From Thermoanaerobaculia bacterium (GTDB lineage Bacteria; Acidobacteriota; Thermoanaerobaculia; Multivoradales; UBA5704): a stretch of DNA of 64,000 nucleotides. Position numbers and translations under genes: made by a program. The stretch covers positions 24,460-88,459 of the forward strand of contig JBGAGQ010000021.1 of NCBI GenBank assembly GCA_044226625.1, read 5' to 3'. Positions 7,613-59,901 of this stretch are shown here, piece by piece. Numbering within the stretch: the stretch's first letter is position 1; every line of letters starts with the position of its first letter. The notes under the pieces are model-generated. The model saw only the letters and a list, made by a program, of their open reading frames with translations. It did no database searches and was not told where the DNA came from.

Positions 7613-7646
7613 TGCGGAACCGGGTTCGAGTCCCGGCCATCGAATC

Positions 7647-8741: not shown

Positions 8742-8839
8742 CGTTCTTGACTCCTTGGTCAAAAGTTTCGGAAGAGCCCGAGGACGCTTCCGGAAGGTTT
8801 CCGCGCGAACAGGGCCCGAGACTGTAGCACAGCCCTTCA

Positions 8840-8855
8840 GGCAAGACTTGGGCCA
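8840..8855 (-). promoter_or_regulatory. sigma54 (-24/-12) promoter upstream of the DsbA gene
   Basis: Minus strand reads TGGCCCAAGTCTTGCC (GG-N10-GC), 13/16 identical to the pilin promoter, about 100 bp upstream of the start. Confidence 0.65.
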
Positions 8856-8968
8856 GCCCTTTCTGGCATGGCGGCCTCTCGGGCAGAGCCCCCAGGATTC
8901 AAGGTGCGCGCGAGGCTCGTGGGAGGGTCAAGGGGCCGAGCGCGCCCCGCTCCGTTCCGCGATCCGTC

Positions 8969-9520
8969 CTAGCCGGCCGGCTTCAGCAGGGCGTACAAGA
9001 AATTGTCGACTCGGGTCCCGTGAAGGCGAAAGTAGGAGCGGAGGATTCCCTCCTTCTCGAACCCGATACTTTCGAGCACCTTTTGGGAGGCGACGTTGTC
9101 CAGCGCGCAGCGCGCTTCCAGGCGCTCCAGCTGAGTTTTGGAGAACAGCTCACCCACCAGCAGACGGATCGCCCGCTTCATGATGCCTCGCCGCTGGTAA
9201 GGAGTCGACAACGCGTACCCCACCTCCGCCAGGCCGTGCTCCCAATTGTTGATGACGAGGGTAATCCATCCGGCCGGCTGCTGGCCAAGCTGGATCACCC
9301 ACTGGTATTTGTCGCCTCTCGCCCGGTAGAGATCCGACATCCTCTGGTGTACGAGATCCGACCGGAGCTGGGAGCTGGGCAGATCGTTGAGCGGCTGGAA
9401 ACGGCGGACCGCGGGCTCCGACCGCCAGAAGCGAAGGAGATCGGCGTCGCGCGGCGTCGCCGGGCGGAGCGTCACCTCGTCCGCAGCGGGCTCGGGTTCG
9501 CTCTTCTCCAAAGGTTGCAT
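8969..9520 (-). CDS. GNAT family N-acetyltransferase (RimJ/RimL type)
   Basis: AEVGYAL...QRRGIM, N.ASQKVLESIGFEKEG motifs; ATG 9520. Confidence 0.88.
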   Translation of the reverse strand: MQPLEKSEPEPAADEVTLRPATPRDADLLRFWRSEPAVRRFQPLNDLPSSQLRSDLVHQRMSDLYRARGDKYQWVIQLGQQPAGWITLVINNWEHGLAEVGYALSTPYQRRGIMKRAIRLLVGELFSKTQLERLEARCALDNVASQKVLESIGFEKEGILRSYFRLHGTRVDNFLYALLKPAG

Positions 9521-37222: not shown

Positions 37223-38575
37223 ATGAACGATATGCATCTGAGTCGGGAGATTCTGCGCGCCATCGCATCCGGCGACCTTCCTCCTCGAACCCTGCTCGAC
37301 ATCGCTCTTCCCCACCTTCTCGACCTCTGTCCGAACTGCGCTTCCGAATGGGAGGCCTACCAGCGAGAGCTCCGATCGACCAACGGAAGTTTTTCGCGAA
37401 CCCTCACCATCCTCCCCACCCTCCTCGAGCGAGAGCTGCCCAAGGCCCGCGCCGAGGAGCGTCAGGCGCGCCAGGATCTCAGCGAATTGGTGCGGATGCC
37501 CGAAGCGAAGCGGATGGGGCGCGTCCGCCGGTCGTATCGGCGTTTTCGGACCTCGGCACTCGCCCAGTTGTTGATCGAGGAATGTCGGAAACGCCTGCCG
37601 TCGGCCCCTCGGGAGGCGCGCCATTTCGCTGAGCTCGCCCGCGAGGTCGCAAATCAGCTCTCCGAATCGCCGGTCGCGCGCGAGCTCCAAGCTCTCACGC
37701 TCGGCGAGGTGGCCAACGCCGTCCGCGCCGAGGGCGACCTGCCGCAAAGCGATCGGCTGTTCCGCCAGGTTCGCCACCTCACCATCGTCGGTGGGGTAAC
37801 CGATCCGGAGATCCTGGCGCGCCTGGACTCTCTCGAAGGCTCGCTTCGCTCGGACCAATGCCGTTTCCGCGAGGCCGAAGAGGTTCTGGAACGGGCGAGG
37901 TTCCATTACGACCTGCTCGGCGATCGCACCGCGACCGGTCGAGTCCAGATGCAGCTCGCCAACGTCTACCACCATCGGGGCGAGACCGCGCGCGCCGTGC
38001 GCCTGGGAACCGAGGCTCTCGGCCATTTCGACCCCGAAAGCGACCTCTGGCTCTATCTCGCCGCGCGCCGCAACTTGGCTACCTACCTCGCCGGCGCGGG
38101 ACGGAGAGAAGAGGCGCTCACGATCCTGGACGAGGACGAGGACCGGCACCGAGATCTCGGCGAGCCGCTCCTACAGATTCGCTATACGTGGCTCCGCGGA
38201 AAGATCGCGCTCGACCAGGGGGAGATAGAAGACGCGGTCCGTTGCCTCACCGCGGTTCGCGACGTCTTCACGAAGGCAGAGAACGGCTTCGACGCCGCAC
38301 TCGCCTCGTTGGACCTTGCCCAGGCCTACCTTGCGGCCGGCCGCCCCGCCGAGACGAAACGGATCGCCTCCGACATCGTGCCGATGTTCGAGGCCAACGA
38401 GGTGCATCGGGAAGCGCTGGCCGCGCTCCTCCTCTTCCGGGACGCCGCGGAGCGCGAAAGCCTCACGGCCTCCTGGCTGCGCGATCTCGGCGCCTTCCTC
38501 GAAGCCTCCCGCAGCAACCGCTCCCTGCGCTTCGAGCCGAACCGGCGAACCGGCCGGCCTCGGGTCAAATCCTGA
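37223..38575 (+). CDS. Cytoplasmic TPR-repeat protein with N-terminal H-x4-C-x2-C (zinc anti-sigma-like) motif
   Basis: MHLSRE...[10 protein letters not shown] followed by about 7 TPR-like helix pairs; no signal peptide. Confidence 0.75.
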
Positions 38576-41135
38576 CGCCCCGCAGCCGCAGCGCGTTGCC
38601 GATCACCGAAACCGAAGAGAACGACATCGCCGCGCTCGCGACGATCGGCGAGAGGAGCAGGCCGAACGCCGGGTAGAGGATCCCCGCGGCGAGCGGAACG
38701 CCGAGAAGGTTGTAGGCGAAGGCGAAAACCAGGTTCTGCCGGATGTTCCGCATCGTCGCGTGCGACAGACGCCGGGCGCGGACGATCGCACCGAGATCGC
38801 CTCCCATCAAGGTCACGCTCGCGCTCTCGACCGCCACGTCGGAGCCCGTGGCGAGCGCCAGGCCCACCTCCGCCCGGGCGAGCGCCGGGGCGTCGTTGAC
38901 GCCATCGCCCGCCATCGCAACGCGGCGCCCGGCCGCCTGGAGGCGCTCGATCTCCTTCGCCTTCCCCTCGGGCAGCACCTCGGCGATCACCTCGGCGATC
39001 CCGAGCTCGCGCGCTACCGCCTCGGCCGTGGCCCGGGAATCGCCCGTGAGCATGACCAGCCGGAGACCCTCCTGCCGGAGCGCCGCTAGCGCCGCCGGGG
39101 TGGAAGGTCGAATCGGATCGGCGATCCCGAGCAGCCCGAGGACGCGACCGCCCCGGATCACCGCGACCACCGTGCGGCCGCCGGCTCGGAGCGCGGCCGC
39201 CGGCTCGTCGAACGACGATCCGAGCTCGCTCTCCGCTACGCCGAGCTCCTTGGCCAACAACCGGTTTCCCAGGGCGACCTCGGTTCCCGAGAGCATCCCC
39301 GAGACGCCGCGACCCGAGAGGGCTCGGAAGCTCTCGATTTTCGGCGGATCGATTCCGCGCTCGGCGGCGCCGGCAAGAATCGCGGCGGCGAGCGGGTGCT
39401 CGCTGCCCCGTTCCAATCCGGCCGCGACGGAGAGCAGATCCCGTTCGTCGATCCCGGGCGCCGGTCGGATCTCGACCAGCCGAGGCTTCCCCTCCGTCAA
39501 GGTCCCGGTCTTGTCCATCACCAGCGTGTCGACTTTTTCGAGGGTCTCGAGCGCGGCGGCGTCCCGGAAGAGGACTCCCGACCGGGCTCCCCGGCCGGTT
39601 CCGACCATCACCGACATGGGTGTTGCGAGGCCCAATGCGCAAGGGCAGGCGATGATGACCACCGCTACGGCGTTGACCAGGGCATAGGCAAACCGCGGCT
39701 CGGGCCCCACCGTGAGCCAAATCAAGAAGGTGAACACCGCCACGGCGACCACGGCCGGAACGAACCAGGCGGCCACCCGGTCGGCCAACCGCTGGATCGG
39801 CGCGCGGCTTCGCTGTGCCTCGCCGACCAGCCGGACGATCTGCGCGAGCACGGTGTCTTGGCCGATCCGCTCCGCGCGGAAGACGAAGCTCCCGGAGCCG
39901 TTCACCGTGCCGCCGACCACCTTGGCCCCTGGCTCCTTTTCGACCGGGATCGGCTCGCCCGACAGGAGCGACTCGTCGACCGAGCTCATCCCCTCCTCGA
40001 CCGTTCCGTCGACCGGCACCTTTTCGCCCGGCCGGACGCGTAGGCGGTCGCCGACGTGGATCGCGGTGATTTCCACCTCCTCGTCGCGCCCATCGACGCC
40101 GACTCGAAGCGCGGTCTTGGGTGAAAGGCCGAGCAGAGCGCGGATGGCCGCCCCGGTCGAACGGCGTGCGCGCAGCTCCAAGACCTGGCCGACCAAGACC
40201 AGCGCCGTGATCACCGCCGCCGCTTCGAAATAGAGAGGCGGACGCCCGCCGTGGCCGGAGGCGGCCACCCCCGCGGGCAACCAGCGCGGAAACAGCACGG
40301 CGACGAGGCTATAAAGATAGGCCGCTCCAGTGCCGAGGGCGATCAGGGTGAACATGTTCGGGCTGCGATAGCGGATCGAGTCCTTGGCTCGGACGAAAAA
40401 CGGCCATCCTCCCCAAAGGACCACCGGCGTGGCGAGGGCCAGTTGCAGCCAGGCCACCCAGCCACCATGAAGGGCGGAGACTCCCGCCATGCCCACCATC
40501 TCGATCACGAGAAGAGGAAGGGCGAGGATGGCGCTGCCGATCAACCGGCGTTGCATGTCCAGCAACTCGGGGTCGGGACCTTCCTCCAGGGTCGGCACCA
40601 TCGGCTCGAGCGCCATGCCGCAGAGCGGGCACGAGCCCGGTGCGTCGCGCACGACCTCCGGATGCATCGGGCAGGTCCACTTGGCACCCGGCGGAGCCGG
40701 CTCGGCGACGGCTTCGCTTCTCGGCGCGAGGAATTTGCCGGGATCCTTTTCGAACTTCTCCCGGCACCCCGCGCTGCAGAAGTAGTAGGTCATTCCGCCC
40801 AGCTCGGTGCGGTGCTTGGCCGTCGCGGGATCGACGGTCATTCCGCACACCGGATCCACCACTTTCTCGGCTTGAGCCTGAGCTGCAGGCTTGTCGAGGT
40901 ATTTGCCGGGGTCCTTTTCGAACTTCTCTCGGCATCCCGCGCTGCAGAAGAAGTAGGTCTTTCCGTCCAGCTCGGTGCGGTGCTTGGCCGTCGCGGGGTT
41001 CACGGTCATTCCGCACACGGGATCGAGAGCTTTCTCGGGTGTTGTCGGCGCCGCGTGCTCGCCGTGGCAGCAGGACTTCTCGGAAGTGGAGTGGGAGGCG
41101 GTTTGGTGTTCGTCCATGGGAGGGTCCGTGGCCAT
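38565..41135 (-). CDS. copA: Cu(I)/Ag(I)-translocating P1B-type ATPase with two YHS domains and a heavy-metal-binding domain
   Basis: [26 protein letters not shown] and MxxSS motifs; WTCPMHPE...CPLCGM; two DPVCGM YHS repeats. Confidence 0.93.
40729..41024 (-). repeat. Internal tandem duplication of the YHS domain (168-bp period)
   Basis: [43 protein letters not shown] versus [43 protein letters not shown]; highly similar at DNA level. Confidence 0.9.
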
Positions 41136-45870: not shown

Positions 45871-46425
45871 CTACTCTTCGAAGAGGTCGAGGCTCTTGCG
45901 CTCGAGGTCGAGAAGCCAGCGCTTCTTCTTCTCGCCCGCGATGAAACTGCCGGCCCCGGATTTATGGGTGACCACCCGGTGGCACGGGATGAGGATCGGG
46001 ATCGGATTCTCGTGGAGGATCGACAGCACCTGCCGGTAGGCGTCCGGCCGCCCCGCGGCCTCGGCGATGCTCGAATAGGTGCGCGTCTTGCCGTAACCGA
46101 CTTTGGCGGTCTCGCGCAGAACCCGCCGGGCGAATCCGCTGACGCCCGAGGGGCCGAGGTCGAAATCGACGTCCAGCTTGCGGCGCGCTCCCGCGAAGTA
46201 CTCCGCGAGGCTGCCGAAAATCTCGTCCAGGGTATCGGACTCGTCCACGTCGTGGAGCGGCCGATAGGCCGTCCGAGCCTTCCGATCCGGCACGATGACG
46301 AGACCGGTGATCACCGAGCCGCAGAGGTCGACGCCCAGTGAACCGATCGGCGATGGCATCAAGACCCGTAGCGGCTCGTACGGCACCGGTGGGTCGCCCA
46401 CGCCCACGACTTGAACCTCTGGCAT
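45871..46425 (-). CDS. ogt: Methylated-DNA--protein-cysteine methyltransferase
   Basis: SPIG, EYFAG, GKTRTYS.IA, NPIPILIPCHRVV active site. Confidence 0.9.
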   Translation of the reverse strand: MPEVQVVGVGDPPVPYEPLRVLMPSPIGSLGVDLCGSVITGLVIVPDRKARTAYRPLHDVDESDTLDEIFGSLAEYFAGARRKLDVDFDLGPSGVSGFARRVLRETAKVGYGKTRTYSSIAEAAGRPDAYRQVLSILHENPIPILIPCHRVVTHKSGAGSFIAGEKKKRWLLDLERKSLDLFEE

Positions 46426-46603
46426 GGATTCAAAGGTTAACACGGCCGGCGCGGAGGTCGGCAAGGCCCCTCGGGACACGAATCTTCGACGAAGCTCCTC
46501 GGTTTCTCTCGGGAAAACATCGATGTCGGGGGCGAGAAAAGAGTTGGCACAGAGGCATCCCCCGCCCCCTTCCGTTGTCGTCGCCGACAACCTCGTCACT
46601 GGC

Positions 46604-46662
46604 GCAAGATACTCATCACAAAAGACTTAGCGTTGCCAAACGAGGACTTTCGCGAGTAGATT
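46604..46662 (+). promoter_or_regulatory. Near-leaderless sigma70-type promoter plus conserved upstream box (XRE C)
   Basis: GCAAGATACTCATCACAAAAGACTTA-N3-TTGCCA-N18-TAGATT-N8-GTG. Confidence 0.7.
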
Positions 46663-46670
46663 CCGCCATC

Positions 46671-47150
46671 GTGCAATCCTCGACATTCGCCTGGGTGGGA
46701 GAGACCCTCCGCCGCGTCCGCAAGGAAAAAGGCAAGACCCTTTCCGAGCTCGCGGCGGTCGCGAAGGTCGGCAAAGGGCAGCTGTCGCGGATCGAAACCG
46801 GCAAACAGGAGATCACCCTCGGCACCTTGGCGAAGGTTCTCTCCGCCTACGGGCTCTCGCGCCAGGAGTTCTTTCGCCGCTACGACCTGGTCGAAACCGG
46901 CGAGCTCGACCGCTCGCGCGAGGCGCCGCGCGCGGCGCTCCCGACCGACCCACTCCGCTGGACCGAACGGATGCGGGAGTCGATCGGCCGGATCGAGACC
47001 TTCCTCGCCAACGCCGCCCACGACGTCCGTCCGCTCGCCCAAGGCGGCTTCGAAGCCGGGGAATACGTGGTGTTGTTCCGCGTCCTACCGCGCGCCGCGG
47101 TCGCCGCGGAGGATGGCGCCGCGCCGGACGAGCCGGAAGAACCGAAGTAG
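46671..47150 (+). CDS. XRE-family HTH transcriptional regulator (paralog C)
   Basis: LRRVRKEKGKTLSELAAVAKVGKGQLSRIETG; close paralog of B, sharing EFFRRYDLVE and LAQG..E.GEYVV.FRV. Confidence 0.88.
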   Translation: MQSSTFAWVGETLRRVRKEKGKTLSELAAVAKVGKGQLSRIETGKQEITLGTLAKVLSAYGLSRQEFFRRYDLVETGELDRSREAPRAALPTDPLRWTERMRESIGRIETFLANAAHDVRPLAQGGFEAGEYVVLFRVLPRAAVAAEDGAAPDEPEEPK

Positions 47151-47225: not shown

Positions 47226-48395
47226 CTACTCGCCGCTCTTTTCCAGCTCGATCTCGATCTCCTGCTCGCCGCCCGGACGGATCGTCACCGTCTGCTCGGC
47301 GCCGCGCCGGCCCGGACGGACCACCGAAATCCGGTGCTGTCCGGCGTCGACCAGGAGGCCCTGGCGGAGACGGGCGATCTCCTCGGCAGTGCCGACGAAC
47401 CGGCCGTCAAGGTAGACCGAGGCGTCGTCGGGCTCGATCGAAAGGCGCAACCGGCCCTGCTCCTCGCCGACCTCGATTCGCGAGTCGTCGTCCTCATCCA
47501 CCGTATTTCGGCGGCGGTCGCGGTACGCGCGGTCGCGGTCGATCCGATCGGCACGCTCCCGCTCGTCGGAGATCCGGGTATCGCGCCGCTCGTGGGTCTT
47601 GGTCACGAGGTCTTCAGGACGGACCGAGGCACCGGGTACCAGCCGGTCTCCCACGTCCACCGTCAATCCCGGATAGATCGTGTACTGGCGCGCGAGCGTC
47701 TGGTAGCCGTCGCGGAAGAAGACGAGGTCGTAGGTTCCCTTGTCCAACCAGAGGTAGGTCGGGAAGCCGTCGAAGTCGTCCACCGTACCGATGTACTGAC
47801 CGTCCAGCCAGACCTGGGTGTCCCCCGGCCAGATGTCCAGGTCCAGAGCGCCCTGGTCGTCTTCGTAGCCGTAACGGCGTCCGTAACCGTAGCCCCCGTA
47901 GCCGTAGGGATACGGATCGCCCCACCCCCAGCCCCAGCCCCACCAGCCCCACCACGGGTTCGAATAGGGGCCGTAATACCCGCGGCCGTAACCGTAGTGA
48001 CCGCCGCCGTGGCCGCCATGGCCATGGTCGCCGCCCCGGCTGCCGCGGTCATGCCATTCGCCGCGGCCGCCACCCGGAGAGCTGGAGCGCGGCTGCGCGG
48101 TCCAACCGCCGCCGGTCGAGCCGGAGCTCGAGCCGGAGCCCGGGCTGGCGCTCTGGCCGCCGGACGACGTGCCGCCCGAGCTTCCGCCGGAACCGCCGCC
48201 AGAATTCCAGTTGCCGCGGTCGCCGCCCGGCTCGGAGCGCGCGTGCACGGCCTCGCCAGCCGAGCCGTCGCTGTGCCCATGGGACTGCGCCGCGATCGGC
48301 GCGGCCGCGAGCCCGAGCGCCACGAACAACGCGAGACCCCACGAAGGGGCGCGGCGGGCGCCTTCTGCGCCTGGTTCTCGAGTTGAAACTGTCAT
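47226..48395 (-). CDS. Secreted PEGA-domain protein with Gly/Ser and Gly/Tyr/Trp low-complexity regions
   Basis: Signal peptide; two PEGA domains (P.D.QVWLDGQYIG, P.DASVYLDGRFVG). Confidence 0.85.
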   Translation of the reverse strand: MTVSTREPGAEGARRAPSWGLALFVALGLAAAPIAAQSHGHSDGSAGEAVHARSEPGGDRGNWNSGGGSGGSSGGTSSGGQSASPGSGSSSGSTGGGWTAQPRSSSPGGGRGEWHDRGSRGGDHGHGGHGGGHYGYGRGYYGPYSNPWWGWWGWGWGWGDPYPYGYGGYGYGRRYGYEDDQGALDLDIWPGDTQVWLDGQYIGTVDDFDGFPTYLWLDKGTYDLVFFRDGYQTLARQYTIYPGLTVDVGDRLVPGASVRPEDLVTKTHERRDTRISDERERADRIDRDRAYRDRRRNTVDEDDDSRIEVGEEQGRLRLSIEPDDASVYLDGRFVGTAEEIARLRQGLLVDAGQHRISVVRPGRRGAEQTVTIRPGGEQEIEIELEKSGE

Positions 48396-50651: not shown

Positions 50652-51554
50652 ATGCAGACCACCGAGGGTTTCGTGTTCGTCCGTCCGGGGCTCCACCTGT
50701 ATTACCGCACGGTGGGCGACGGGCCGGAGGTCGTCCTGATTCCGAACGCGAACTGGCTCTCCGAGCTGCTCACGCCGCTCGCCGCGGGGAGGACTCTGCT
50801 GTTCTACGACCCTAGGAGCCGGGGCCGGTCGAGCGCGGTGTCCGATCCGCGCCAGCTCTCGCTCGAGGCCGACGTCGAGGACCTCGAGGCGGTCCGGCGC
50901 TTTTTCGGCGTCGAACGGCTGTCGCTCCTCGGCAGCAGCTACCACGCGGCGATCGCCGCCCAATACGCGATCGAGAATCCCGGGCGGATCGAGCGCGTGG
51001 CGCTGGTCTGTCCGATCACGCCGCGGATTCCGGGCGAGTGGGCCCAGGAGCTTCCCGCGCCCGAGATCCTGATCTACCCGCCCGGCGTGCCGAAGCTCGA
51101 GGCGCTGCGGCAGGCTGAGGTCGATCGGCTCGACCCGGTCGCCTTTTGCCACGCCTGGTTTTCTCACTTCCTGCTGCCGGCCCAGCTCAGCGATCCCGGG
51201 TCGATCGAGCGTTTCCCGCTCGCGGACGTCGCGGCCTTTCCGAACGAGTGGCCCCAGCACACCATGCCGCTCTACTTCCGCGACATCGTGCCGAAAATGG
51301 GCCGCTGGGATTTCCGTCCGGGATTGGCCCGGCTCGCGGCGCCGCTCCTGGTGATCCAGGGGACCGACGATCTCGTGCCGGTCCAGGCGTCGGAGGAGTG
51401 GGCGGCCCATGCGCCCGAGGCGCGCTTCCTATCGATCGAAGAGGCCGGCCATCATCCCTACCTCGAAACGCCGGACGAGCTCTTCCCCGCGATGGAGACG
51501 TTTCTGTCGGGCCGCTGGCCCACGGCCGCGAAGGTCGGTCGCCGCGCCGCTTGA
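50652..51554 (+). CDS. Alpha/beta hydrolase (proline iminopeptidase-like)
   Basis: YDPRSRGRS, D.EAVR..FG.ER..LLGSSYH nucleophile elbow, GTDD acid, AGHHPYLE His. Confidence 0.85.
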   Translation: MQTTEGFVFVRPGLHLYYRTVGDGPEVVLIPNANWLSELLTPLAAGRTLLFYDPRSRGRSSAVSDPRQLSLEADVEDLEAVRRFFGVERLSLLGSSYHAAIAAQYAIENPGRIERVALVCPITPRIPGEWAQELPAPEILIYPPGVPKLEALRQAEVDRLDPVAFCHAWFSHFLLPAQLSDPGSIERFPLADVAAFPNEWPQHTMPLYFRDIVPKMGRWDFRPGLARLAAPLLVIQGTDDLVPVQASEEWAAHAPEARFLSIEEAGHHPYLETPDELFPAMETFLSGRWPTAAKVGRRAA

Positions 51555-51587
51555 AGCTCGATCCGGGAGCGAATCTCTAAGGGTTCG

Positions 51588-52604
51588 CTACCGGACCTCG
51601 AACGGGTAGTCGCCGACTTTGCGGCTCCGGCCATCGGCATTCGTCGACAGGATGACCCGATAGCGACCCTTGCCGAGCTTCGACGGATGGAGCAGGAAGG
51701 TAATGCCGCCCTGGGTCTTGTCGAAGCGGGCGGAGCTCGAAAACACCTTGCCTCCCGCATTGCGCACTTCGAGCTCGTAGCGGTCGGCCGGCGACTCTCC
51801 TTCGTCCAGGGCGGGATCGAGGATCAGCAAGAGGTTGTCGTTCTTCGCGGAAAACGGCTGGACCGACTCCTCGAGCCCTCCCCGGGCTACGTCGGACGAA
51901 AGGGCCTCGACGAGCACGTTGCCGCTGCCGAAATCGGCCACCGCCTCGGCCGCTCCGCCCGGCGCCGTGGCTGCCGTGGACGCTGGAGCTCCGCTTTCGG
52001 TCCCGCCGGCCGCGGGCCGCTCCGCCAGCCGGCGCTCGAGCTCCCGCGACTCGGTGCGCAGCCGCTCGGCTTCTTTCTGCGTCGCGGCCTGTTGCGCTTC
52101 GGCCGAAACCACCTGCGCTCCTAGCGACCGGCGCGCCGTTTCGCTGTTCATCCAGCCCGACAGCGCGACGACTCCGCCGAGCGCGGCGGCGAGCGCCGAG
52201 ACCTGCCAGGTCCGCAAGGCACGACGCGGGACGACCATGGGCATCGGAGCGGGGCCCGATGCGGCGCGAACGTTGGGCCGCAGCAGGACCACGTCCGGCT
52301 CCTCGGCGAGGCGACGGCTGGTTCGGATCAGCTCGAGCTCGGCCGAGCACTCGGCGCAGTCTTCGAGATGGCGCTCGATCAGGCCGCTGTCCAGCCCCTC
52401 GGGTGTCCGATCCCAGGCGTAGTCGACCAACGCTTCCGACGGCACGTGGGCGGAGAAGATGCGATAACCGAGACGGGTCTCCTCGAGCGCGGCACGGCAG
52501 GCGACGCAATCGGCCAGATGGCCGTGGATCTCCGCCCGCTCCGTCGGGTCGAGGGAGCCGTTCAAGTACCAGGGCAGACGCTCGATGGCTTCATCGCAGA
52601 TCAT
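51588..52604 (-). CDS. Membrane-bound anti-sigma factor with two zf-HC2 (ZAS) motifs
   Basis: MICDEAIERLPWY...HLADCVAC and H.PSEALVDY...HLEDCAEC, then a TM helix, coiled coil and C-terminal beta domain. ATG 52604 fits the RBS better than 52610. Confidence 0.85.
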   Translation of the reverse strand: MICDEAIERLPWYLNGSLDPTERAEIHGHLADCVACRAALEETRLGYRIFSAHVPSEALVDYAWDRTPEGLDSGLIERHLEDCAECSAELELIRTSRRLAEEPDVVLLRPNVRAASGPAPMPMVVPRRALRTWQVSALAAALGGVVALSGWMNSETARRSLGAQVVSAEAQQAATQKEAERLRTESRELERRLAERPAAGGTESGAPASTAATAPGGAAEAVADFGSGNVLVEALSSDVARGGLEESVQPFSAKNDNLLLILDPALDEGESPADRYELEVRNAGGKVFSSSARFDKTQGGITFLLHPSKLGKGRYRVILSTNADGRSRKVGDYPFEVR

Positions 52605-53247
52605 TCGCATTCCCTCCGCCCTTGATAGGCGCGGTCCGCGCCGATCCGTTACCGCGGACGCCCGCGAGCAACTGGGATCGCACGCGCGTCGCCTTCTCCC
52701 GGCAGCGCAGGACGCGCACGCGGAGGGTTCCTTCGGAGACCGACATCCGGTCGCTCATCTCCCGGTAGGAGGCGCCGGAGGCCAGCATCCGCCACATCGA
52801 ACGGCATTCGTCCGGGACCCGGTCGAGCACTCGGATCAGCAGGTCGCGGTCGACCCCCACCTCCGCCGCGCCGGGGCCGGGGGCGAGCGGCTGCTCGGAG
52901 CTCGAGAGGGCTTCCAGGTCTTCCGTCGGCTTACGGCTCAAGGCCCGGACCTGATCGACACAGGTGTGCGAGACCACCCGAAACAGGTAGGTCTTGAGGC
53001 TCGAGTCGCCGTTGAACCGCCCCTGGCCGAGCAGGCGGGTGATCTCCAGGCGGACGTCCTGGAGCAGATCGTCCCATCGATGGGCCAAGCGGCGCCGGAA
53101 CGGCCAGGCCGCCCGCGCGATCCAGCCGTCGATGGTGCGGATCGCCTGGCGATCGCCGGCGAGATACCGCTGCGCCAGATCCGTCTCGTCGTCGGCCGCG
53201 GTCCGCGAGATCCAGGACAGAGGCCGGAGCGCTTCATCGAAAGCCAT
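52591..53247 (-). CDS. ECF RNA polymerase sigma factor (copy 2)
   Basis: Region 2 DDLLQDV...F.G.SSLKTYLFRVVSHTCVD; region 4 SYREMSDRMSVSEGTLRVRVLRCR. Confidence 0.92.
   Translation of the reverse strand: MAFDEALRPLSWISRTAADDETDLAQRYLAGDRQAIRTIDGWIARAAWPFRRRLAHRWDDLLQDVRLEITRLLGQGRFNGDSSLKTYLFRVVSHTCVDQVRALSRKPTEDLEALSSSEQPLAPGPGAAEVGVDRDLLIRVLDRVPDECRSMWRMLASGASYREMSDRMSVSEGTLRVRVLRCREKATRVRSQLLAGVRGNGSARTAPIKGGGNANDLR
52626..52653 (-). promoter_or_regulatory. Putative ECF promoter inside the 3' end of sigma copy 2, facing the anti-sigma gene
   Basis: GGTAAC-N15-GCGCCTA ending 22 nt before the downstream ATG; identical boxes and spacing at 53269-53296. Confidence 0.55.
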
Positions 53248-53854
53248 TCGCAGTTCCTCCGCGGCGTTTAGGCGCGGAAGCGCTCTCGATGTTACCGACC
53301 CGCTCCATCGGCGGCACGCCGAGCAGCTCGGCCCGGGCGGTCGTCGCCTTCTCGCGACAGCGAAGGACGCGCACCCGGAGCGTTCCCTCGGCGACCGTGA
53401 GCCGGTCGCCCATCTCCTTATAGGACATCCCCGCGGCGAGCATGCGCCACAGGTTCCGGCAGTCGTAGGGAACGCGGTCGAGGACGCGGAGCAGGAGGTC
53501 CCGCTCGACGCGGGTCTCGGCGGCGCTCGGGCCTTCGGAATGCGGTTGCTCGGCCCCGTCGAGCTCGTCCAGGTCCTCCCACTTGTGCTTGTTCTGCGCC
53601 CGCACCTGGTCGAGGCAGGTATGCGACACGACCCGCCAGAGGTAGGTCTTCAGGCTCGAGTCGCCGCGGAACTTCCCCTGCCCGAGAAGGCGGGTGACCT
53701 CCAGGCGGATCTCCTGGAGCACGTCGTCCCAGCGGTGGGCGAGGCGGCGCTGATAGGGCCAAGCCGCACGGGCGATCCAACCGTCGATCGTCGAGATGGA
53801 GGAGCGCTCGCCTCCCAGGAATCCACGGACGACCTCCTCATCCTCCCCTTGCAT
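53234..53854 (-). CDS. ECF RNA polymerase sigma factor (copy 1)
   Basis: AAGGAGG RBS and ATG 53854; IDGWIARAAWP..RRLAHRWDD, SSLKTYLWRVVSHTC, EGTLRVRVLRCREKAT; close paralog of copy 2. Confidence 0.92.
   Translation of the reverse strand: MQGEDEEVVRGFLGGERSSISTIDGWIARAAWPYQRRLAHRWDDVLQEIRLEVTRLLGQGKFRGDSSLKTYLWRVVSHTCLDQVRAQNKHKWEDLDELDGAEQPHSEGPSAAETRVERDLLLRVLDRVPYDCRNLWRMLAAGMSYKEMGDRLTVAEGTLRVRVLRCREKATTARAELLGVPPMERVGNIESASAPKRRGGTANGFR
53269..53296 (-). promoter_or_regulatory. Putative ECF promoter inside the 3' end of sigma copy 1, facing sigma copy 2
   Basis: GGTAAC-N15-GCGCCTA; the boxes are conserved between paralogs while the spacer has diverged. Confidence 0.55.
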
Positions 53855-53987
53855 GCTTCCGGGCGCCTCCTTTGACCGCTCGATCTTAGCCGCAAACGGC
53901 GGGGCTTCCGAGGCATCCCGGACTACAATCGGCTGCGGCGACCGAAGGTTCGAGCTTCGCGGTCCCTTCCCCTCTCGTGGAGCCGAA

Positions 53988-56900
53988 GTGACCCAAGACT
54001 TCCTCCCCGCCGTCCTCCGACGCGCACCGAACGCCCGGCGCATCGGTCGGCGTCTACGGCGTGCGATCCTCCTCGGCGCTTGGATCGGATGCGTCGCCGC
54101 GGCAGCCGAGACGATCGAGCCGGTCCGGATCGCCGTCGGGCAGAGCGTCGAGATCGAGCTCTCGGCGGGCGTGCCACGCTCTTTTGACCTCGAGGTCGGC
54201 GCGGGCGAATACGTCCAGGTCGTTTTTTCGCCCAGGCCGGGGATCTCGATCCGGGCGTCTCTCGAAGATCCTGCCCAACGCACGGTCGCAAGCGCGGAGA
54301 TCGCCGCCACCCAGGTGCTCTGCGGCATCACGGACTCCGCGGGACTCGCGACGCTTTCGATCGAGCTCGCTCCGGCGAGCGCCCCCGGCCGGCTCACGGT
54401 GGAGCGCGAGATCGGCCGCCCGGCGCGTCCGGGCGATCCGGACCACTGCGCGGGCGACCGCGCGTACTGGCAAGGTCGAGCCGCGGAGCGACGGGGTGAG
54501 ATCGCCGCGGCGCTCGAGGGCTACGAAAGCGCGCTCGCGAGCTACCGAAAGGCGGACGACCTCGCCGGCCAGGTCCAGGCGCTCTTCCGCTCCGGCCGGG
54601 CCCTCGGCGCCCGCGGCGGGCCGGGCGACGACGCGCGCGAACGGACGATGTACGACCAGGCCCTCCCTCTCGCCGAGCGGCTTGCCGACCTCGCGTCGAC
54701 CGATCTTCCGGCCGCGAGCGCCTGCGCGAACCTCTGGGGCACCGTCGGCCGGCTCCATCTGGAACGCGGCGACTCCGACGGCGCGCAAGCCTTCTACGAC
54801 CGGGCGGTCGCGGTGGCGCGGGCCTGGCCGGACGACCTCGACCTCCCTTCCCGTCTCAAGTACATGGCCGACGCGGCCCGGCAGGCGGGCGATCGGTCCG
54901 CCGCGTCGGCGGGCTATCTCGAGACGCTCGCGCTCGCCGGGAAGAATCCAGTGCTCGCCGCGCAGGCGGAGATCGGCCTCGGCCAGATCGCCGATCGTTT
55001 GGAAGAGGCGCTCGCCCATTTCGACGTCGCCGCGGCCTCCGTGCCGGAGAGCCTCGAGATCGCGTTCCTCACCCGCCACGAGCGGTGCGTGGCGCTCTCG
55101 CGTTTCGGCGCCCTCGGCGAGGCGCTCCAGGAATGCCAGACCGCCCTCCTCCTCGCCTGCGCGACGTCGGGCGCGAAAGGCAACGAGGCCGCGAGCCTCA
55201 ACAACCTCGGCAGCCTCTACGTCGACCTCGGCTCCTACGACAAGGCGGCCGCGCAATTCGAGCAGGCCGAGACGTTCTTCCGCTCGTTCGGCGAGACCGG
55301 CAACGCCGGCGACGCGCTGTTGAACCGGGGGATCGCCGAGGTCGCGCTCGGCCGGTTCGATCCGGCGGAGAAGCGTCTGGAAGAGGCGCTCGCGATCGCG
55401 CGGGACGGGCATGACGACCGGAGCCAGGGCGTTGCGCTCGTCCAGCTCGGCCGTTGGGATCTGCTGCGGCCGAACGGCGATCCGGAACGGGCGCGCGGCC
55501 GGCTGTCCGAGGCGCTCGAGCTCGCCACCCGAACCCGCGCGGCCGATCTCGAAGCCGACGCCCGGCTGGAGCTTTCCTCGGCGCTCGACCGCCTCGGCCG
55601 GTCCGACGAAGCGCTCGCGGAGCTCGAAACCGCCTCCGGGCTCGCCGCCACGCTCCAGGATCCGATCCGGCAGTCGGCCGTGCTCACCCGCCGCGCCGAG
55701 ATCCTGCTCGACCGTGGCGCGCTCGACGCCGCCCTCGCGGCGATCGACGAGGCGGTGCGGAAAGTCGACGCTCTGCGCGCCGAGGCGACCTCGGGCTTTC
55801 GCGCCTCGTTCCTCGCCCGACGACGCCGGACGTTCGAGCTACAGGTCGAGATCCTGATGCGGCTCCACGAGGCGAAGCCGGGTGAGGGATACGACGTTCG
55901 GGCTTTCGAGGCGAGCGAGTCGGCCCGCGCGCGCAGCCTCCTCGACCTGCTCGCCGAACGTCGAGCCGGCGGCGAGGCCGTTGCGGCGCGGGCGCTTTCG
56001 GCGTCGCAGATCCGCGCCGCGCTCGGGCCGGGCGAGCTGCTGCTCGAATTCCTCCGCTCCCAGGACGCGACCTTTCTCTTCGCGGTGCGCAGCGAATCGC
56101 TCGCCGCGTTTCGCCTCGACGCCCGAGCGATCGGCGGGACGCTGCGCAACTTCACCGGCGCGCTCGCCGATCCGCGCAGCCTCGCGCCCGGCCTCCGCCT
56201 CGCCGGCTCGAAGCTCTACCGCGCGCTGCTCGGACCGGTGGACGGCCCGATCGCGGAAGCCCGGAGACTGATCGTCGCGGCGGACGGCGATCTCTACGAC
56301 CTGCCTTTCGAGACCCTGGTCGCACCCGTTCGGGCCGACGCCGCGGCCGGTTTTCTGATCGAGCGGCTGCCGATCTCCTACGTCCCCTCGGCGAGCATTC
56401 TCGCCCGGTTGGGCGACCTGCCGCTTCGGGAGGGACCCGACTTCGTCGGTTTCGCCGCTCCGAATCCGGGCGGAGGGCTGCCCGCCTTGCCCAAGGTGGA
56501 GGACGAGGTCCTGCGAATCGCCGCCCTGTTCCCCGGCCGCAGCCGCACGTTTCTCGGCGCAGAGGCGACGGAAGGCCGGTTTCGCGCCGAGCTGCCCGCG
56601 GTCGGCACGGCCAAGCGCCTACATTTCGCGGCCCACGGCTATCTTTCGGAAGATCCCGAGCAGATGGGCATCCACCTTTCCCCCGATCCGGCGCGAAGGG
56701 GCGACGGCCTCCTCCAGGCGTTCGAAATCCTCGGGCTCGACCTCCACGCCGACCTGGTGGTGCTCTCCGCCTGCGAGACCGCCCGAGGCCAGCGGGTGCC
56801 CGGCGAGGGAACCCTCGGCCTGCCGCGCGCCTTTTTCTATGCCGGGGCGAAGAGCGTCGTGGTGAGCCTCTGGCGGGCGGAAGACCGCGCGACCGCCGCC

Positions 56901-57044
56901 CTCATGGAGTCGTTCTACCGCGCCCTTGCCGGCGGGGCCGACAAGGCCGAGGCGCTCCGCCGGGCCAAGCTCGATCGCCTCGCCGTCGGCGACGTCCCGC
57001 GCCAGTGGGCGCCGTTCGTTCTGGTCGGCTCGCCGGTGCGGTAA
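53988..57044 (+). CDS. Secreted TPR-CHAT (caspase HetF-associated) protease
   Basis: GTG 53988 after GGAG; Arg-rich n-region and hydrophobic signal; beta-rich N-domain; many TPRs; CHAT dyad LHFAAHG and LVVLSACET; VVSLW and WAPF motifs. Confidence 0.9.
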   Translation: MTQDFLPAVLRRAPNARRIGRRLRRAILLGAWIGCVAAAAETIEPVRIAVGQSVEIELSAGVPRSFDLEVGAGEYVQVVFSPRPGISIRASLEDPAQRTVASAEIAATQVLCGITDSAGLATLSIELAPASAPGRLTVEREIGRPARPGDPDHCAGDRAYWQGRAAERRGEIAAALEGYESALASYRKADDLAGQVQALFRSGRALGARGGPGDDARERTMYDQALPLAERLADLASTDLPAASACANLWGTVGRLHLERGDSDGAQAFYDRAVAVARAWPDDLDLPSRLKYMADAARQAGDRSAASAGYLETLALAGKNPVLAAQAEIGLGQIADRLEEALAHFDVAAASVPESLEIAFLTRHERCVALSRFGALGEALQECQTALLLACATSGAKGNEAASLNNLGSLYVDLGSYDKAAAQFEQAETFFRSFGETGNAGDALLNRGIAEVALGRFDPAEKRLEEALAIARDGHDDRSQGVALVQLGRWDLLRPNGDPERARGRLSEALELATRTRAADLEADARLELSSALDRLGRSDEALAELETASGLAATLQDPIRQSAVLTRRAEILLDRGALDAALAAIDEAVRKVDALRAEATSGFRASFLARRRRTFELQVEILMRLHEAKPGEGYDVRAFEASESARARSLLDLLAERRAGGEAVAARALSASQIRAALGPGELLLEFLRSQDATFLFAVRSESLAAFRLDARAIGGTLRNFTGALADPRSLAPGLRLAGSKLYRALLGPVDGPIAEARRLIVAADGDLYDLPFETLVAPVRADAAAGFLIERLPISYVPSASILARLGDLPLREGPDFVGFAAPNPGGGLPALPKVEDEVLRIAALFPGRSRTFLGAEATEGRFRAELPAVGTAKRLHFAAHGYLSEDPEQMGIHLSPDPARRGDGLLQAFEILGLDLHADLVVLSACETARGQRVPGEGTLGLPRAFFYAGAKSVVVSLWRAEDRATAALMESFYRALAGGADKAEALRRAKLDRLAVGDVPRQWAPFVLVGSPVR

Positions 57045-57175
57045 CCTTTGGCAACGATCGACCGCCCAAGGCAGTGACGCCATTTCAGGGGTTCGCGAAC
57101 TTACGGATCGGCCATTTGGGCCGCCGTGACGTGGACCCCGCCTTGCCAGACATTTCCAAAGGGAGGACGCACACC

Positions 57176-57670
57176 ATGCCCGTCGACAACGACACCGGAG
57201 GCGGCACCCAGTACACCATCACCCACCCCCGTCCGGTCGCCCCGCCGCCCGGAGACATCGCGGCCGCCATCGCGACCGGGGTGGCCGCCGCCATCCAGCT
57301 CTATACGATTTTCGGCACGTCCGGCGATCCCTCGGGGGCGCAGATCACCGCTGTCGTGGCGACTCTCCTGGGATTCCTGATCCTGGTCGTCACCATCATC
57401 CAGAACGGCGTGAGCCAGGACGTGGTGCTCGACATCCCGAGCGACCCGGCCGCCTGGACGGAGCTCAAGCCCCAGCAAAAGGGGGGCAACATACCGAACG
57501 GCATCGTGGCGACCGATATGATCCTGTTCCGGGATCCGGACACCTCCAACGGGATGAAGATCCAGACCACGGCCGGCGGGGTTTCGACCACCGCGACGAC
57601 CGTGCATCTCGTCCTGCTCGAGTCGCGGGACCCCTCGAACAAGCCGAAGTACACCTGCACCTTCACCTGA
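57176..57670 (+). CDS. Hypothetical protein with hydrophobic hairpin, downstream of the CHAT gene
   Basis: GGAGG RBS and ATG 57176; GC3-rich coding pattern; hydrophobic stretches IAAAIATGVAAAIQLY and AVVATLLGFLILVVTII. Confidence 0.7.
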   Translation: MPVDNDTGGGTQYTITHPRPVAPPPGDIAAAIATGVAAAIQLYTIFGTSGDPSGAQITAVVATLLGFLILVVTIIQNGVSQDVVLDIPSDPAAWTELKPQQKGGNIPNGIVATDMILFRDPDTSNGMKIQTTAGGVSTTATTVHLVLLESRDPSNKPKYTCTFT

Positions 57671-57768
57671 TCCGCACCGGTTCAGCAGGGGAAGACGACC
57701 CCGCTCCCCTCGGTTATAGTCCCCGACTTCGTTTTGGCGGGATCTAGACTGAACCCGAGGGGAGCCGT

Positions 57769-59901
57769 ATGTCCGAGTCGTCCCAACTGATGCGCAAGCT
57801 GCACGAGCTCGCGCAGAACCTCTGGTGGTGCTGGCGGCCGGAGATCCGCTCGATCTTTCGCGAGCTCGCCCCGGAAACCTGGAAAGCCGTCTACCACAAT
57901 CCGGTCGCCCTCCTGCATCGCCTCGACGACGCGAGCGTCGCGCGGCGGGTCTCGTCCCTCGAGATGCAGACCCGGATCGACCAGGCGCACCGGCTCCTCA
58001 CCGAATACCTGCGCGGCGGAGACGGCTGGGGTGCCGTCCACGCCTCGGCGCTGCTCGCCCGGCCGGTCGCCTATTTCTCGGCCGAGTTCGGTCTCCATCA
58101 GTCGATCCCGATCTATTCCGGCGGTCTGGGCGTCCTCGCGGGCGACCACCTGAAGAGCCTGAGCGACCTCGGCGTCCCGGTGGTCGGCGTCGGCCTGCTC
58201 TACCATCAGGGCTACGTCCACCAGCTCATCGACGCGTCGGGCGACCAGCAGGATCATTACGAGCCGGTCGACTCGGGGCTGCTGCCGATCTCGCCGATCG
58301 AGGGCCTCGACGGTCAGCCGGTGCGAGTCGAGGTCGAGCTGCCGGGCCGGACGGTCAAGCTCCGCCTCTGGCGGGTCGAGGTCGGCCGCTGCACGCTCCT
58401 CCTGCTCGACGCGCGCGACGACGAAAACGACGAGGCGGACCGCTCGCTCACCGACCGGCTCTACGGCGGCGACACGGAGACCCGCATCCAGCAGGAGGTG
58501 CTGCTCGGGGTCGGCGGCTGCCGCGCGCTCGCCGCGATCGGCGTCCACCCCTCCGTGCTCCACCTGAACGAGGGGCATTCGGCGTTCGCCCTGCTCGAAA
58601 AGGCCCATCAGATCGCGGCGAACCAGGGGCTCTCGGCCAAGGAGGCCCTGCGCGAGGTGGCCGCGATGTCGGTCTTCACCACGCACACCCCCGTCGAGGC
58701 AGGGCACGACCGGTTCGACCCGGAGCTCGCCGCGCGCTACCTCGAGCCGCTGTTCCCCGCGCTCGGGCTCACCCCGCAGCAACTGGTCGACCTCGGCCTC
58801 GAAAAGCCGGCGGAAGCGGACTCGCTGTTCTGCCCGACCGCCCTCGCGCTCCAGCTGACGCGCCGGGCGAACGGCGTCTCGGCCCTCCACGGCCGGGTGT
58901 CGCGCAAGATGTGGCACCACCTCTACCCCGCGAAGAGCGAGGAGGAGGTGCCGATCGGCCACATCACGAACGGCGTCCACGTCCGCACTTGGATCGCCTC
59001 GGCGATGCACCAACTGCTGGTGCGCCACGTCGGCTCCGACTGGACCGAAAAGATGGCGCATCGCGACCTCTGGGACCGGATCGAAGCGGTGCCGGACGCC
59101 GAGCTCTGGGAGGTCCACCAGGTTCTCAAAGGCAGGATGGTGGAATTCGTCCGCGGCCGCCTCGCCGAGCGGCGATTGCGATTGAGCCTCCCCGAGCCGA
59201 CGGAGATCCCGCTCGGCGCGGAGGTGCTCACGCTCGGTTTCGCCCGCCGTTTCGCCACCTACAAGCGCGCGGACCTCCTACTGTCCGATCTCGACCGTCT
59301 CGCCCGTCTGGTGGGCGACCCCGCACGGCCGATCCAGATCGTCTACGCGGGCAAAGCCCATCCGCGCGATGCCGCGGGCAAGGATCTGGTTCGCAAGGTT
59401 TCGGAGCTCGAAAACGATCCCCGCTTCGCCGGCCGCGTCGTCCTGGTCGAGAACTACTCGATGCACGTCGCCCGGCAGCTCGTGCAAGGGGTGGACGTCT
59501 GGGTGAACACCCCCCGGCGCCCCTACGAAGCCTGCGGCACGAGCGGCCAGAAATGCATCCTGAACGGCGTGCTGAACCTGTCCATCCTGGACGGCTGGTG
59601 GGCCGAGGCGTTCGACGGAGCGAACGGCTTCGCGATCGGCCACGGCGAGAGCCACAAAGACCCCGAGATCCAAGACGCCCGCGACGCCGAGTCGCTCTAC
59701 GAAGTCCTCGAGCGCCAGGTGGTCCCCCTCTACTACCACCGCAACGACGAGGGAATCCCACGCGCCTGGATCGCCCGCATCAAGCGCGCCATCCACACCA
59801 TGGCCTGGCGCTTCAACGCCGACCGCATGGTGAGGGACTACGTCGAGGAGTGCTACCTGCCGGCCGCGGGCGGCTCGACGTGCCGGATGCCGGGGCGGTA
59901 G
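57769..59901 (+). CDS. glgP: Alpha-glucan (glycogen/maltodextrin) phosphorylase
   Basis: AYFSAEFG, YSGGLGVLAGD, HLNEGH, GFARRFATYKR, EACGTSGQK PLP site. Confidence 0.96.
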   Translation: MSESSQLMRKLHELAQNLWWCWRPEIRSIFRELAPETWKAVYHNPVALLHRLDDASVARRVSSLEMQTRIDQAHRLLTEYLRGGDGWGAVHASALLARPVAYFSAEFGLHQSIPIYSGGLGVLAGDHLKSLSDLGVPVVGVGLLYHQGYVHQLIDASGDQQDHYEPVDSGLLPISPIEGLDGQPVRVEVELPGRTVKLRLWRVEVGRCTLLLLDARDDENDEADRSLTDRLYGGDTETRIQQEVLLGVGGCRALAAIGVHPSVLHLNEGHSAFALLEKAHQIAANQGLSAKEALREVAAMSVFTTHTPVEAGHDRFDPELAARYLEPLFPALGLTPQQLVDLGLEKPAEADSLFCPTALALQLTRRANGVSALHGRVSRKMWHHLYPAKSEEEVPIGHITNGVHVRTWIASAMHQLLVRHVGSDWTEKMAHRDLWDRIEAVPDAELWEVHQVLKGRMVEFVRGRLAERRLRLSLPEPTEIPLGAEVLTLGFARRFATYKRADLLLSDLDRLARLVGDPARPIQIVYAGKAHPRDAAGKDLVRKVSELENDPRFAGRVVLVENYSMHVARQLVQGVDVWVNTPRRPYEACGTSGQKCILNGVLNLSILDGWWAEAFDGANGFAIGHGESHKDPEIQDARDAESLYEVLERQVVPLYYHRNDEGIPRAWIARIKRAIHTMAWRFNADRMVRDYVEECYLPAAGGSTCRMPGR

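Follow-up and report, generated by a model that had tools for sequence, protein, structure and literature searches.

A predicted exported TPR-CHAT protease encoded beside twin ECF sigma factors and a membrane anti-sigma factor in a Thermoanaerobaculia bacterium: a possible two-polypeptide relative of DdvA

Why should a caspase-like protein be encoded next to extracytoplasmic function (ECF) sigma factors and a membrane anti-sigma factor? The question is raised by positions 51588-57670 of a 64,000-nucleotide stretch of DNA from a Thermoanaerobaculia bacterium (hereafter, the window). Open reading frame (ORF) calls place five genes here in two divergent units: two ECF sigma paralogs (sigA and sigB) with an anti-sigma gene, and a gene for a tetratricopeptide repeat (TPR) protein ending in a CHAT domain, followed by a small gene. 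A previous interpretation made from the DNA letters (the sequence-only reading) proposed that the TPR-CHAT protein is an exported protease that cleaves the extracytoplasmic part of the anti-sigma factor and so releases one or both sigmas. The parts list behind this proposal held up in our analysis of the predicted genes and proteins: the tandem ECF sigmas and the single-pass anti-sigma factor with two HxxxCxxC motifs were recovered, with some gene starts corrected, as were the divergent TPR-CHAT gene with its LHFAAHG/LSACET dyad and signal-peptide-like N-terminus and the small gene downstream.

We consider it very probable that the CHAT protein is functionally coupled to the sigma/anti-sigma pair, because the genes are linked in other genomes, the compartments of the two proteins match, a natural fusion of the parts is known and the catalytic dyad is conserved. 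The fusion is DdvA of Myxococcus xanthus, a transmembrane anti-sigma factor that combines a zinc-binding anti-sigma (ZAS) domain with a periplasmic TPR-CHAT part and has the ECF sigma DdvS as partner (PMC11506125; PDB 8ROT, 8RW5, 8RLZ). By analogy, the reading that we tentatively favor for the window is a DdvA-like switch split over two polypeptides: the exported protease would act on the periplasmic part of the anti-sigma factor. In this reading, physical contact, cleavage, the direction of control, a subsequent site-2 step and the triggering signal are inferred, as is what the second sigma and the small protein do.

The linkage was assessed by scanning a species-representative genome collection with the CHAT alignment, which yielded at least 79 CHAT loci from many phyla, and by iterating profiles built from the window sigmas and the first ZAS domain over all ORFs of these 79 listed loci (cited below by L numbers). 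The listed loci are distant, with 26-44% identity; relatives that are 62-66% identical are not among them. In 25 of the 79, a sigma-profile match is found no more than 1.5 kb from the CHAT gene, and the density of such matches is 8-fold higher near CHAT genes (25 in 202,333 bp) than more than 3 kb away (6 in 380,944 bp; Poisson P about 1e-14). Of the 52 loci that have 1.5 kb or more of sequence on either side, 20 are sigma-linked. Pfam Sigma70_r2 confirms 23 of the 25 linked sigma ORFs; among the 19 candidate anti-sigma ORFs, seven reach zf-HC2 at E<=1e-3, and others are recognized by the motif alone. By phylum, the link holds for 14 of 17 listed Acidobacteriota loci, and it extends to seven other named phyla, namely Bacteroidota (2 of 25 loci), Chloroflexota, Actinomycetota, Verrucomicrobiota, Binatota, Aminicenantota and Bacillota. 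The survey of CHAT neighborhoods thus reveals a strong and widespread tie to ECF sigma and anti-sigma genes, as the sequence-only reading would have it.

This enrichment bears directly on the simplest alternative, namely, that an ordinary ECF/ZAS pair and one TPR-CHAT gene are adjacent by chance. Such genomes are indeed rich in ECF sigmas and in TPR-CHAT proteins (739 homologues of the window protein at E<=1e-3 among 8000 scored, those with names coming from metagenome-assembled genomes (MAGs) of Acidobacteriota/Thermoanaerobaculia), and the two units of the window lie on opposite strands. Chance adjacency is nevertheless highly improbable given the 8-fold excess of sigma genes beside CHAT genes, the recurrence of the divergent layout in L007 and L008, and the shared contigs of close relatives. 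In L007 and L008, the relatives of the window sigma and anti-sigma proteins give phmmer E values of 1e-32 to 1e-77. The sharing of contigs by module-gene homologues of close relatives is indicated indirectly, by a longest contig of equal size: 57595 and 11346 for homologues of the CHAT, anti-sigma and small proteins, and 109047 for those of the CHAT and anti-sigma proteins.

Three gene orders were found among the linked loci, the sigma gene usually having an anti-sigma gene next to it: sigma, anti-sigma and CHAT in succession, with gaps of -7 to 68 nucleotides; the divergent arrangement of the window, L007 and L008; and CHAT followed by sigma and anti-sigma. The linkage accordingly survives rearrangement, which we count in favor of the split switch. 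No further gene was found to be conserved across the sigma-linked loci when the flanking genes were scanned. The catalytic dyad is retained in 85 of the 87 CHAT ORFs of related loci and in 30 of the 31 that belong to sigma-linked loci.

Some of the listed loci show arrangements of their own. In L077 (3603-11993), one sigma/anti-sigma pair is followed by three tandem TPR-CHAT genes, the first of which has an N-terminal stretch that resembles, by eye, a class III nucleotidyl cyclase. In L078 (4481-6782), about 2.3 kb of unrelated ORFs separate the sigma gene from the anti-sigma/CHAT pair, an apparent operon insertion that includes a 297-residue zinc-ribbon protein, transposase-like by eye. The anti-sigma gene of L067 (5559-6178) is split over two ORFs by an apparent frameshift. 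In three loci from Acidobacteriota/Verrucomicrobiota (L059, 5338-8822; L076, 5710-9236; L060, about 5023-9134), the sigma gene directly adjoins the gene of a cytoplasmic TPR-CHAT protein, and no anti-sigma ORF intervenes; a fused, DdvA-like form was considered for these three and ruled out, the CHAT N-termini having neither HxxxCxxC nor a hydrophobic segment.

The second line of evidence is the match between compartments, with membrane and signal calls made from hydropathy windows and reading by eye. Both proteins could be assessed in 19 systems. A membrane anti-sigma factor accompanies a CHAT protein with a signal-peptide-like N-terminus in 12 of these (the window, L001, L003, L004, L007, L008, L018, L021, L030, L033, L043 and L055), and a soluble anti-sigma factor accompanies a CHAT protein without a signal peptide in the other seven (L042, L062, L064, L071, L073, L077 and L078); discordant pairs number 0 of 19. 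The pairing of an exported CHAT protein with an extracytoplasmic anti-sigma part, as envisaged in the sequence-only reading, is the one predicted for the window, and the compartments of the two proteins agree in 19 of 19 systems. In L043 (6080-6450), the CHAT signal peptide lies in a different frame, apparently because of a frameshift. The seven soluble systems, with L067, form a cytoplasmic class of triplets made up of an ECF sigma, a soluble anti-sigma-like protein and a TPR-CHAT protein without a signal peptide. Some of these soluble proteins carry HxxxCxxC at the N-terminus and others lack it; they have in common an L-x-F-D-S...P...G-V-R motif and also include a small beta domain. The C-terminus of the L042 and L078 proteins is CarboxypepD_reg-like.

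The window CHAT protein itself carries the marks of an exported protease. Its ORF opens at 53796 and ends at 57044 on the plus strand; the likely start is the GTG at 53988, with GGAG 5 nucleotides upstream, and the resulting 1018-residue protein shows 100% identity and coverage with database protein P0001. The Pfam CHAT profile (PF12770) matches at 211.8 bits (E 1.9e-62), TPR_12 matches in six stretches, and both the LHFAAHG and the LSACET motif are present. The dyad residues, H883 (56634-56636) and C929 (56772-56774), are invariant in 26 homologues. The profile match, the catalytic His and Cys, and a modeled caspase-like beta sheet at residues 672-1018 together place the protein in the CHAT family, with predicted activity. 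Residues 1-40 resemble a signal peptide, being rich in RR and continuing with AILLGAWIGCVAAAA (15-residue window, Kyte-Doolittle hydropathy 2.16), and a hydrophobic stretch occurs within the first 70 residues of 91 of the 120 listed CHAT homologues. Several of the homologues without such a stretch begin inside the beta-sandwich and appear, by eye, to be truncated. The window protein is most likely exported, by the Sec or the Tat route or as a lipoprotein.

In the structural model of the CHAT protein (pLDDT 87.9, pTM 0.79), a helix covers the signal-like segment at the N-terminus; it is followed by a beta-sandwich (residues 45-145), a TPR superhelix (residues 150-660) and the CHAT domain (residues 672-1018). 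When this model was compared with the PDB using Foldseek, DdvA came first (8rw5, E 9e-18; 8rot_A, E 7e-17; about 930 aligned columns), followed by human separase and then by Csx29 (8eey_B, E 5e-15). In sequence searches of the PDB, the full CHAT protein and its profile matched TPR proteins only, and the CHAT domain alone had zero matches.

The anti-sigma factor is the putative substrate. Its first ZAS domain matches Pfam zf-HC2 (PF13490) at 41.6 bits, above the cut-off of 22.2, and so belongs to the family. A second HxxxCxxC follows at residues 81-88, preceded at a distance of 26 residues by a His, as in the first copy, and two 50-residue halves of the N-terminus are 36% identical over 47 residues (E 7e-6). 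On its own, the second half scores 13.8 bits (E 0.063), which is below the threshold, with the motif and the ligand spacing kept; its appearance is that of an internal copy of domain 1 that has degenerated. Across 23 anti-sigma homologues, those with names coming from Acidobacteriota/Thermoanaerobaculia MAGs, each of the eight ligand positions is conserved to at least 90%, and the motif is likewise doubled in the anti-sigma factors of L004, L007 and L008. RsiW is the best match of the anti-sigma family among solved sequences (E 0.002).

A moderately hydrophobic stretch begins at residue 136 of the anti-sigma factor (best 19-residue window, Kyte-Doolittle 1.46), and W135, A139-A142 and L144 are invariant in the 23 homologues. 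In the AlphaFold model (pLDDT 75.4), residues 1-103 form helices, residues 104-131 are disordered, one long helix at residues 132-197 includes the conserved hydrophobic WQxxALAAALGGV segment, and a disordered Pro/Ala-rich linker (residues 198-231, pLDDT <50) leads to a predicted immunoglobulin (Ig)-like domain. Hydropathy, the modeled helix and the invariant residues support the assignment as a single-pass membrane protein. A Foldseek search with the model returned generic Ig-like matches only (phage connector/baseplate proteins, CD47 and ephrin). The linker at residues 198-231 is our candidate cleavage region, as judged from the modeled disorder.

From these parts, the following sequence of events can be envisaged for the split switch. 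At rest, the ZAS domains of the anti-sigma factor would hold the ECF sigma or sigmas in the cytoplasm, and the exported beta-sandwich/TPR/CHAT protein would serve as a periplasmic sensor and protease. An envelope or extracellular signal would cause CHAT to act on the periplasmic part of the anti-sigma factor, and the most likely cut would fall in the accessible, disordered stretch that joins the membrane-proximal helix to the Ig-like domain. Such a cut would constitute site-1 cleavage, which would license intramembrane site-2 proteolysis and, with it, sigma release. A complex prediction for CHAT residues 172-1018 with anti-sigma residues 190-340 scored 0.01 against a mark of 0.32, and we count it neither way.

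The same parts could be arranged without proteolysis. The TPR-CHAT protein might bind the periplasmic domain of the anti-sigma factor as a co-sensor or protector, shielding it from another site-1 protease or exposing it to one, much as RseB acts on RseA, in which case the dyad would be needed for autoprocessing, if for anything. Arrays of TPRs act as scaffolds for protein binding, the anti-sigma model includes a folded Ig-like domain that could be bound, and the TPR-CHAT part of DdvA is described as a steric block to RseP (PMC11506125). We nonetheless regard a purely non-proteolytic role as quite unlikely, given that the dyad is kept so consistently in the CHAT ORFs of the related loci and is invariant in the 26 homologues, which argues for selection on catalysis.

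Alternatively, CHAT could be an output rather than an input of the sigma factors. The sigma/anti-sigma pair would then sense alone, through redox or another site-1 protease, and the CHAT protein and its small partner would be members of the regulon, with CHAT acting as an envelope protease whose targets would be the small membrane protein or other proteins of the periplasm or cell surface. Several features fit such a scheme: CHAT is often encoded downstream of sigma and anti-sigma at the short gaps given above, so that it would be autoregulated; the five closest CHAT homologues occur together with the small protein; and the flanks of the exported class often hold secreted or cell-surface proteins. 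Downstream of CHAT in L001, L004, L018, L021 and L033, we observed genes for collagen-repeat, PKD/T9SS-sorting, M23 peptidase, L,D-transpeptidase and CarboxypepD_reg proteins; no defence genes were seen near these exported-class CHATs, where PADLOC was not run. The majority of CHAT loci that have no sigma nearby also fit an output role. However, in DdvA the ZAS domain, the membrane helix and TPR-CHAT are fused, which assigns CHAT to the sensing side of the switch; throughout the 19 systems, CHAT and the anti-sigma C-terminus agree in compartment; and the linked loci have no other conserved gene in common. On balance, we judge the output role to be unlikely.

The small membrane protein is pertinent to this choice. 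Its gene starts with an ATG preceded by a GGGAGG Shine-Dalgarno sequence, and its G+C content at third codon positions (0.90) is similar to that of the neighboring genes. The protein has two hydrophobic helices and a conserved N-terminal MPVxNDTxxGTxYT..RPRP; Pfam and NCBIfam gave no match, and the Atlas gave no lead. A profile search found 8 proteins among 1.84 billion representatives. Five of its seven homologues apparently share contigs with the five closest CHAT homologues (longest contigs of equal size: 11346, 57595, 33635, 4680 and 7463), and none of the 79 distant CHAT loci has a homologue. Because the gene tracks the closest CHAT homologues and not the distant loci, it appears to be a clade-specific part of the module. 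A small ORF downstream of CHAT in L007 was considered as a relative and ruled out (hhalign probability 0.1%).

Returning to the split switch, several points weigh against it. ZAS domains can switch by redox without a protease, as in anti-sigma factors of the RsrA/ChrR type. No sigma lies near CHAT in 54 of the 79 loci, including 23 of the 25 from Bacteroidota, and TPR-CHAT proteins therefore clearly have other jobs too. In co-directional operons, CHAT could be simply a co-transcribed output, and the small membrane protein could be the true substrate or partner. On the CHAT-domain tree, the exported/cytoplasmic label requires only 2 changes, so that the 12, 7 and 0 systems of the compartment comparison represent few independent events rather than 19. 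Comparison by hhalign of the C-terminal domains of membrane-class (A4) and soluble-class (A5) anti-sigma factors revealed no shared docking domain (probability 4%). Finally, the proteolysis of DdvA is itself a proposal: the H862A and C907A mutations are reported to have made no difference in unperturbed cells, and phage Mx4 to have triggered no DdvA cleavage, the trigger not being known (PMC11506125).

What the second sigma contributes is a further question posed by the locus. SigA and SigB are 63% identical over 204 residues; both exceed the cut-off of 42.9 bits of the NCBIfam sigma70-ECF model TIGR02937 (56.0 and 66.4 bits, respectively) and are thereby assigned to the ECF family, and both fall slightly below the cut-off of 24 bits for Pfam Sigma70_r2 (23.2 and 23.5 bits). 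The nearest solved structures are ECF sigmas (E 1e-7). In phmmer comparisons with the single sigmas of L007 and L008, SigB (1e-77 and 4e-75) is nearer than SigA (1e-70 and 2e-62), and SigA therefore looks like the younger or faster-evolving duplicate. The pairing of two ZAS domains with two sigmas that was implied in the sequence-only reading does not generalize: L004, L007 and L008 carry the double motif and have one sigma gene in their flanks, which rules out one ZAS domain per sigma as a rule.

The features of the locus are collected in Table 1. Because the gene pairs overlap, sigB, sigA and the anti-sigma gene are taken to form one operon. Within 51000-58200, no match to a sigma-70-type consensus was found, and terminator-like sites number 4 against 3.3 expected; no ECF promoter motif could be derived by eye from the intergenic regions of the window, L007 and L008 only. 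The G+C content of the window is about 0.62-0.73.

Table 1. Coordinates of the genes and predicted domains of the locus within the 64,000-nucleotide window
Feature	Positions	Strand	Remarks
Anti-sigma gene	51588..52610	-	340 residues; homologues begin at M3 = 52604
ZAS domain 1, anti-sigma residues 5-39	52494..52598	-	Ligands C5, H31, C35, C38
ZAS-like domain 2, anti-sigma residues 55-88	52347..52448	-	H55, H81, C85, C88
Predicted periplasmic Ig-like beta-sandwich, anti-sigma residues 232-340	51591..51917	-	Block pLDDT ~77-90
sigA, ECF sigma paralog A	52591..53247	-	218 residues; overlaps anti-sigma gene
sigB, ECF sigma paralog B	53234..53854	-	206 residues from ATG; 14-nucleotide overlap with sigA
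Divergent intergenic region, presumed promoters of both units	53855..53987	.	133 nucleotides
Beta-sandwich/TPR/CHAT caspase-like protease, predicted exported	53988..57044	+	1018 residues, GTG start
Small membrane protein	57176..57670	+	164 residues, ATG start

The locus is flanked by genes for a family 2 glycosyltransferase (GT2), a PEGA-domain protein, an alpha/beta hydrolase and an alpha-glucan phosphorylase, and no further sigma, ZAS or CHAT copies were found elsewhere within the window. Upstream of the GT2 gene lie an XRE-type helix-turn-helix (HTH) protein (46338-47150) and the PEGA-domain protein (47226-48395), with no evident link to the module. PADLOC, run on 51 long ORFs of the window with a library that was unchecked for a Cas7-11 model, detected no Cas or defence match beside the locus, and Tandem Repeats Finder detected no CRISPR-like array in the window; the absence of Cas genes from the window claimed in the sequence-only reading is borne out to this extent. 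The sole strong PADLOC matches were to RtcR/PspF-type CARF-AAA-HTH models (E 6e-106), over the AAA+ part of a 442-residue ORF on the minus strand (2052-3380), which probably encodes an ordinary sigma-54 activator and not a defence protein. At 40727-41038, within the long minus-strand ORF 38565-41135, a unit of 168 bp occurs in 1.9 copies with 89% matches.

How does the locus compare with known systems? Like the window, the DdvA-DdvS pair comprises an ECF sigma, a CHCC-type zinc anti-sigma domain, one membrane helix and a periplasmic TPR-CHAT part with the dyad, and the window CHAT protein is modeled as the same, presumably extracytoplasmic, fold beside an ECF sigma gene. The two differ in that the window CHAT is a separate, predicted exported protein encoded on the opposite strand rather than part of a single polypeptide; PF13490 occurs in 0 of the 120 listed CHAT homologues according to a precomputed Pfam column. 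Unlike DdvA, the window anti-sigma factor has an Ig-like periplasmic domain of its own and a second ZAS repeat, and the locus includes two sigma paralogs and a small membrane partner gene. Sequence similarity to DdvA is undetectable (E 0.35 for the DdvA N-terminal domain). The authors propose that a signal induces CHAT to cleave the linker in trans (site-1), with RseP acting next, and they report that DdvA without TPR-CHAT is degraded in an RseP-dependent manner, the bulky TPR-CHAT part sterically blocking RseP (PMC11506125). DdvA is also described as dimeric, with an active site that lacks three helices, and as controlling an adjacent CBASS/CRISPR-Cas island (PMC11506125), a neighborhood of which the PADLOC and repeat scans found no counterpart beside the locus in the window.

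The idea of a CHAT protein as the site-1 protease of an anti-sigma factor is thus not as novel as the sequence-only reading suggested, the same role having already been proposed for the DdvA fusion. The published search covered fused forms only and found them in Myxococcota and one Comamonas (PMC11506125). Full-text searching of the literature revealed no stand-alone exported TPR-CHAT protein with an ECF/anti-sigma pair, although supplements might mention split forms. Compared with published fused forms that are almost confined to Myxococcota, the triplets of ECF sigma, anti-sigma and TPR-CHAT reported here occur in at least 8 named phyla. If the split switch is real, the window locus is a naturally separated form in which protease and substrate can be handled apart. 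That site-1 cleavage of DdvA is still a proposal is due in part to the union of protease and substrate in a single protein and to a signal that is not known; in a natural two-gene version, the protease and the anti-sigma factor can be expressed, mutated and titrated separately.

A parallel with Csx29 was also drawn in the sequence-only reading. Csx29 is a TPR-CHAT protease that cleaves Csx30, itself bound to an ECF-like sigma. Like the window, this system ties a TPR-CHAT protease genetically to an ECF-type sigma and a sigma-binding inhibitor. In type III-E CRISPR, the craspase consists of Cas7-11 and Csx29 (PMC10028731). In contrast, neither Cas7-11, nor an array, nor any Cas match was found in the window by the PADLOC and repeat scans, and the inhibitor is a membrane ZAS anti-sigma factor, not Csx30. 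The parallel stands at the level of fold, through the Foldseek match, and fails at the level of sequence: the NCBIfam CAS_III-E_sigma model scores 25.9 bits against a cut-off of 100. Activation by a cytoplasmic, RNA-guided Cas7-11 is excluded because the window CHAT carries an export signal.

The cytoplasmic class of triplets recalls ECF54. As summarized in the ECF reclassification, this group (Huang et al. 2015) is found in Actinobacteria only and has no anti-sigma factor, a CarboxypepD_reg protein at +1, and a subtilase and a CHAT-TPR protein nearby (PMC7826278); in its main text and, over the text to at least ECF290, in its supplement, 'CHAT domain' is mentioned under ECF54 only (PMC7826278). 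The ECF54 gene order is that of the cytoplasmic class in L042, L062, L078 and Rubrobacter L073, where a soluble, CarboxypepD_reg-like protein is encoded between the sigma and CHAT genes, which suggests by analogy that the ECF54 '+1' protein may be an anti-sigma factor. The window differs from ECF54 in its membrane ZAS anti-sigma factor, its predicted exported CHAT and its Acidobacteriota-like genome; the module has no subtilase or CarboxypepD_reg gene, and no subtilase was seen among the scanned flanking genes. Neighborhoods of another kind that combine caspases, ECF sigmas and TPRs (EACC2/DUF1822) are mentioned in a 2021 eLife survey (PMC8195603). A broader generalization, which we regard as doubtful, is that TPR-CHAT proteases are phylum-spanning gatekeepers of ECF sigmas that come in two compartment-matched forms, each cutting the adjacent anti-sigma factor, with DdvA, ECF54 and the Csx29/Csx30/sigma axis as special cases or offshoots of a single, ancient way of releasing sigmas by proteolysis.

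The final comparison is with regulated intramembrane proteolysis of single-pass anti-sigma factors, exemplified by RseA/DegS/RseP, RsiW/PrsW/RasP and the self-cleaving RsgI. As in these systems, the window anti-sigma factor is predicted to combine a cytoplasmic sigma-binding domain with an extracytoplasmic domain whose removal would start a cascade. The known site-1 steps are performed by a serine protease, by a metalloprotease or by autoproteolysis, whereas the candidate site-1 protease of the window is a clan-CD CHAT protein that has a TPR sensor and is encoded beside its putative substrate. If the coupling proves to be proteolytic, the site-1 proteases known from bacterial transmembrane signaling would be extended by a caspase-like family, and with it would come a conceptual link to the CRISPR-associated CHAT/sigma axis.

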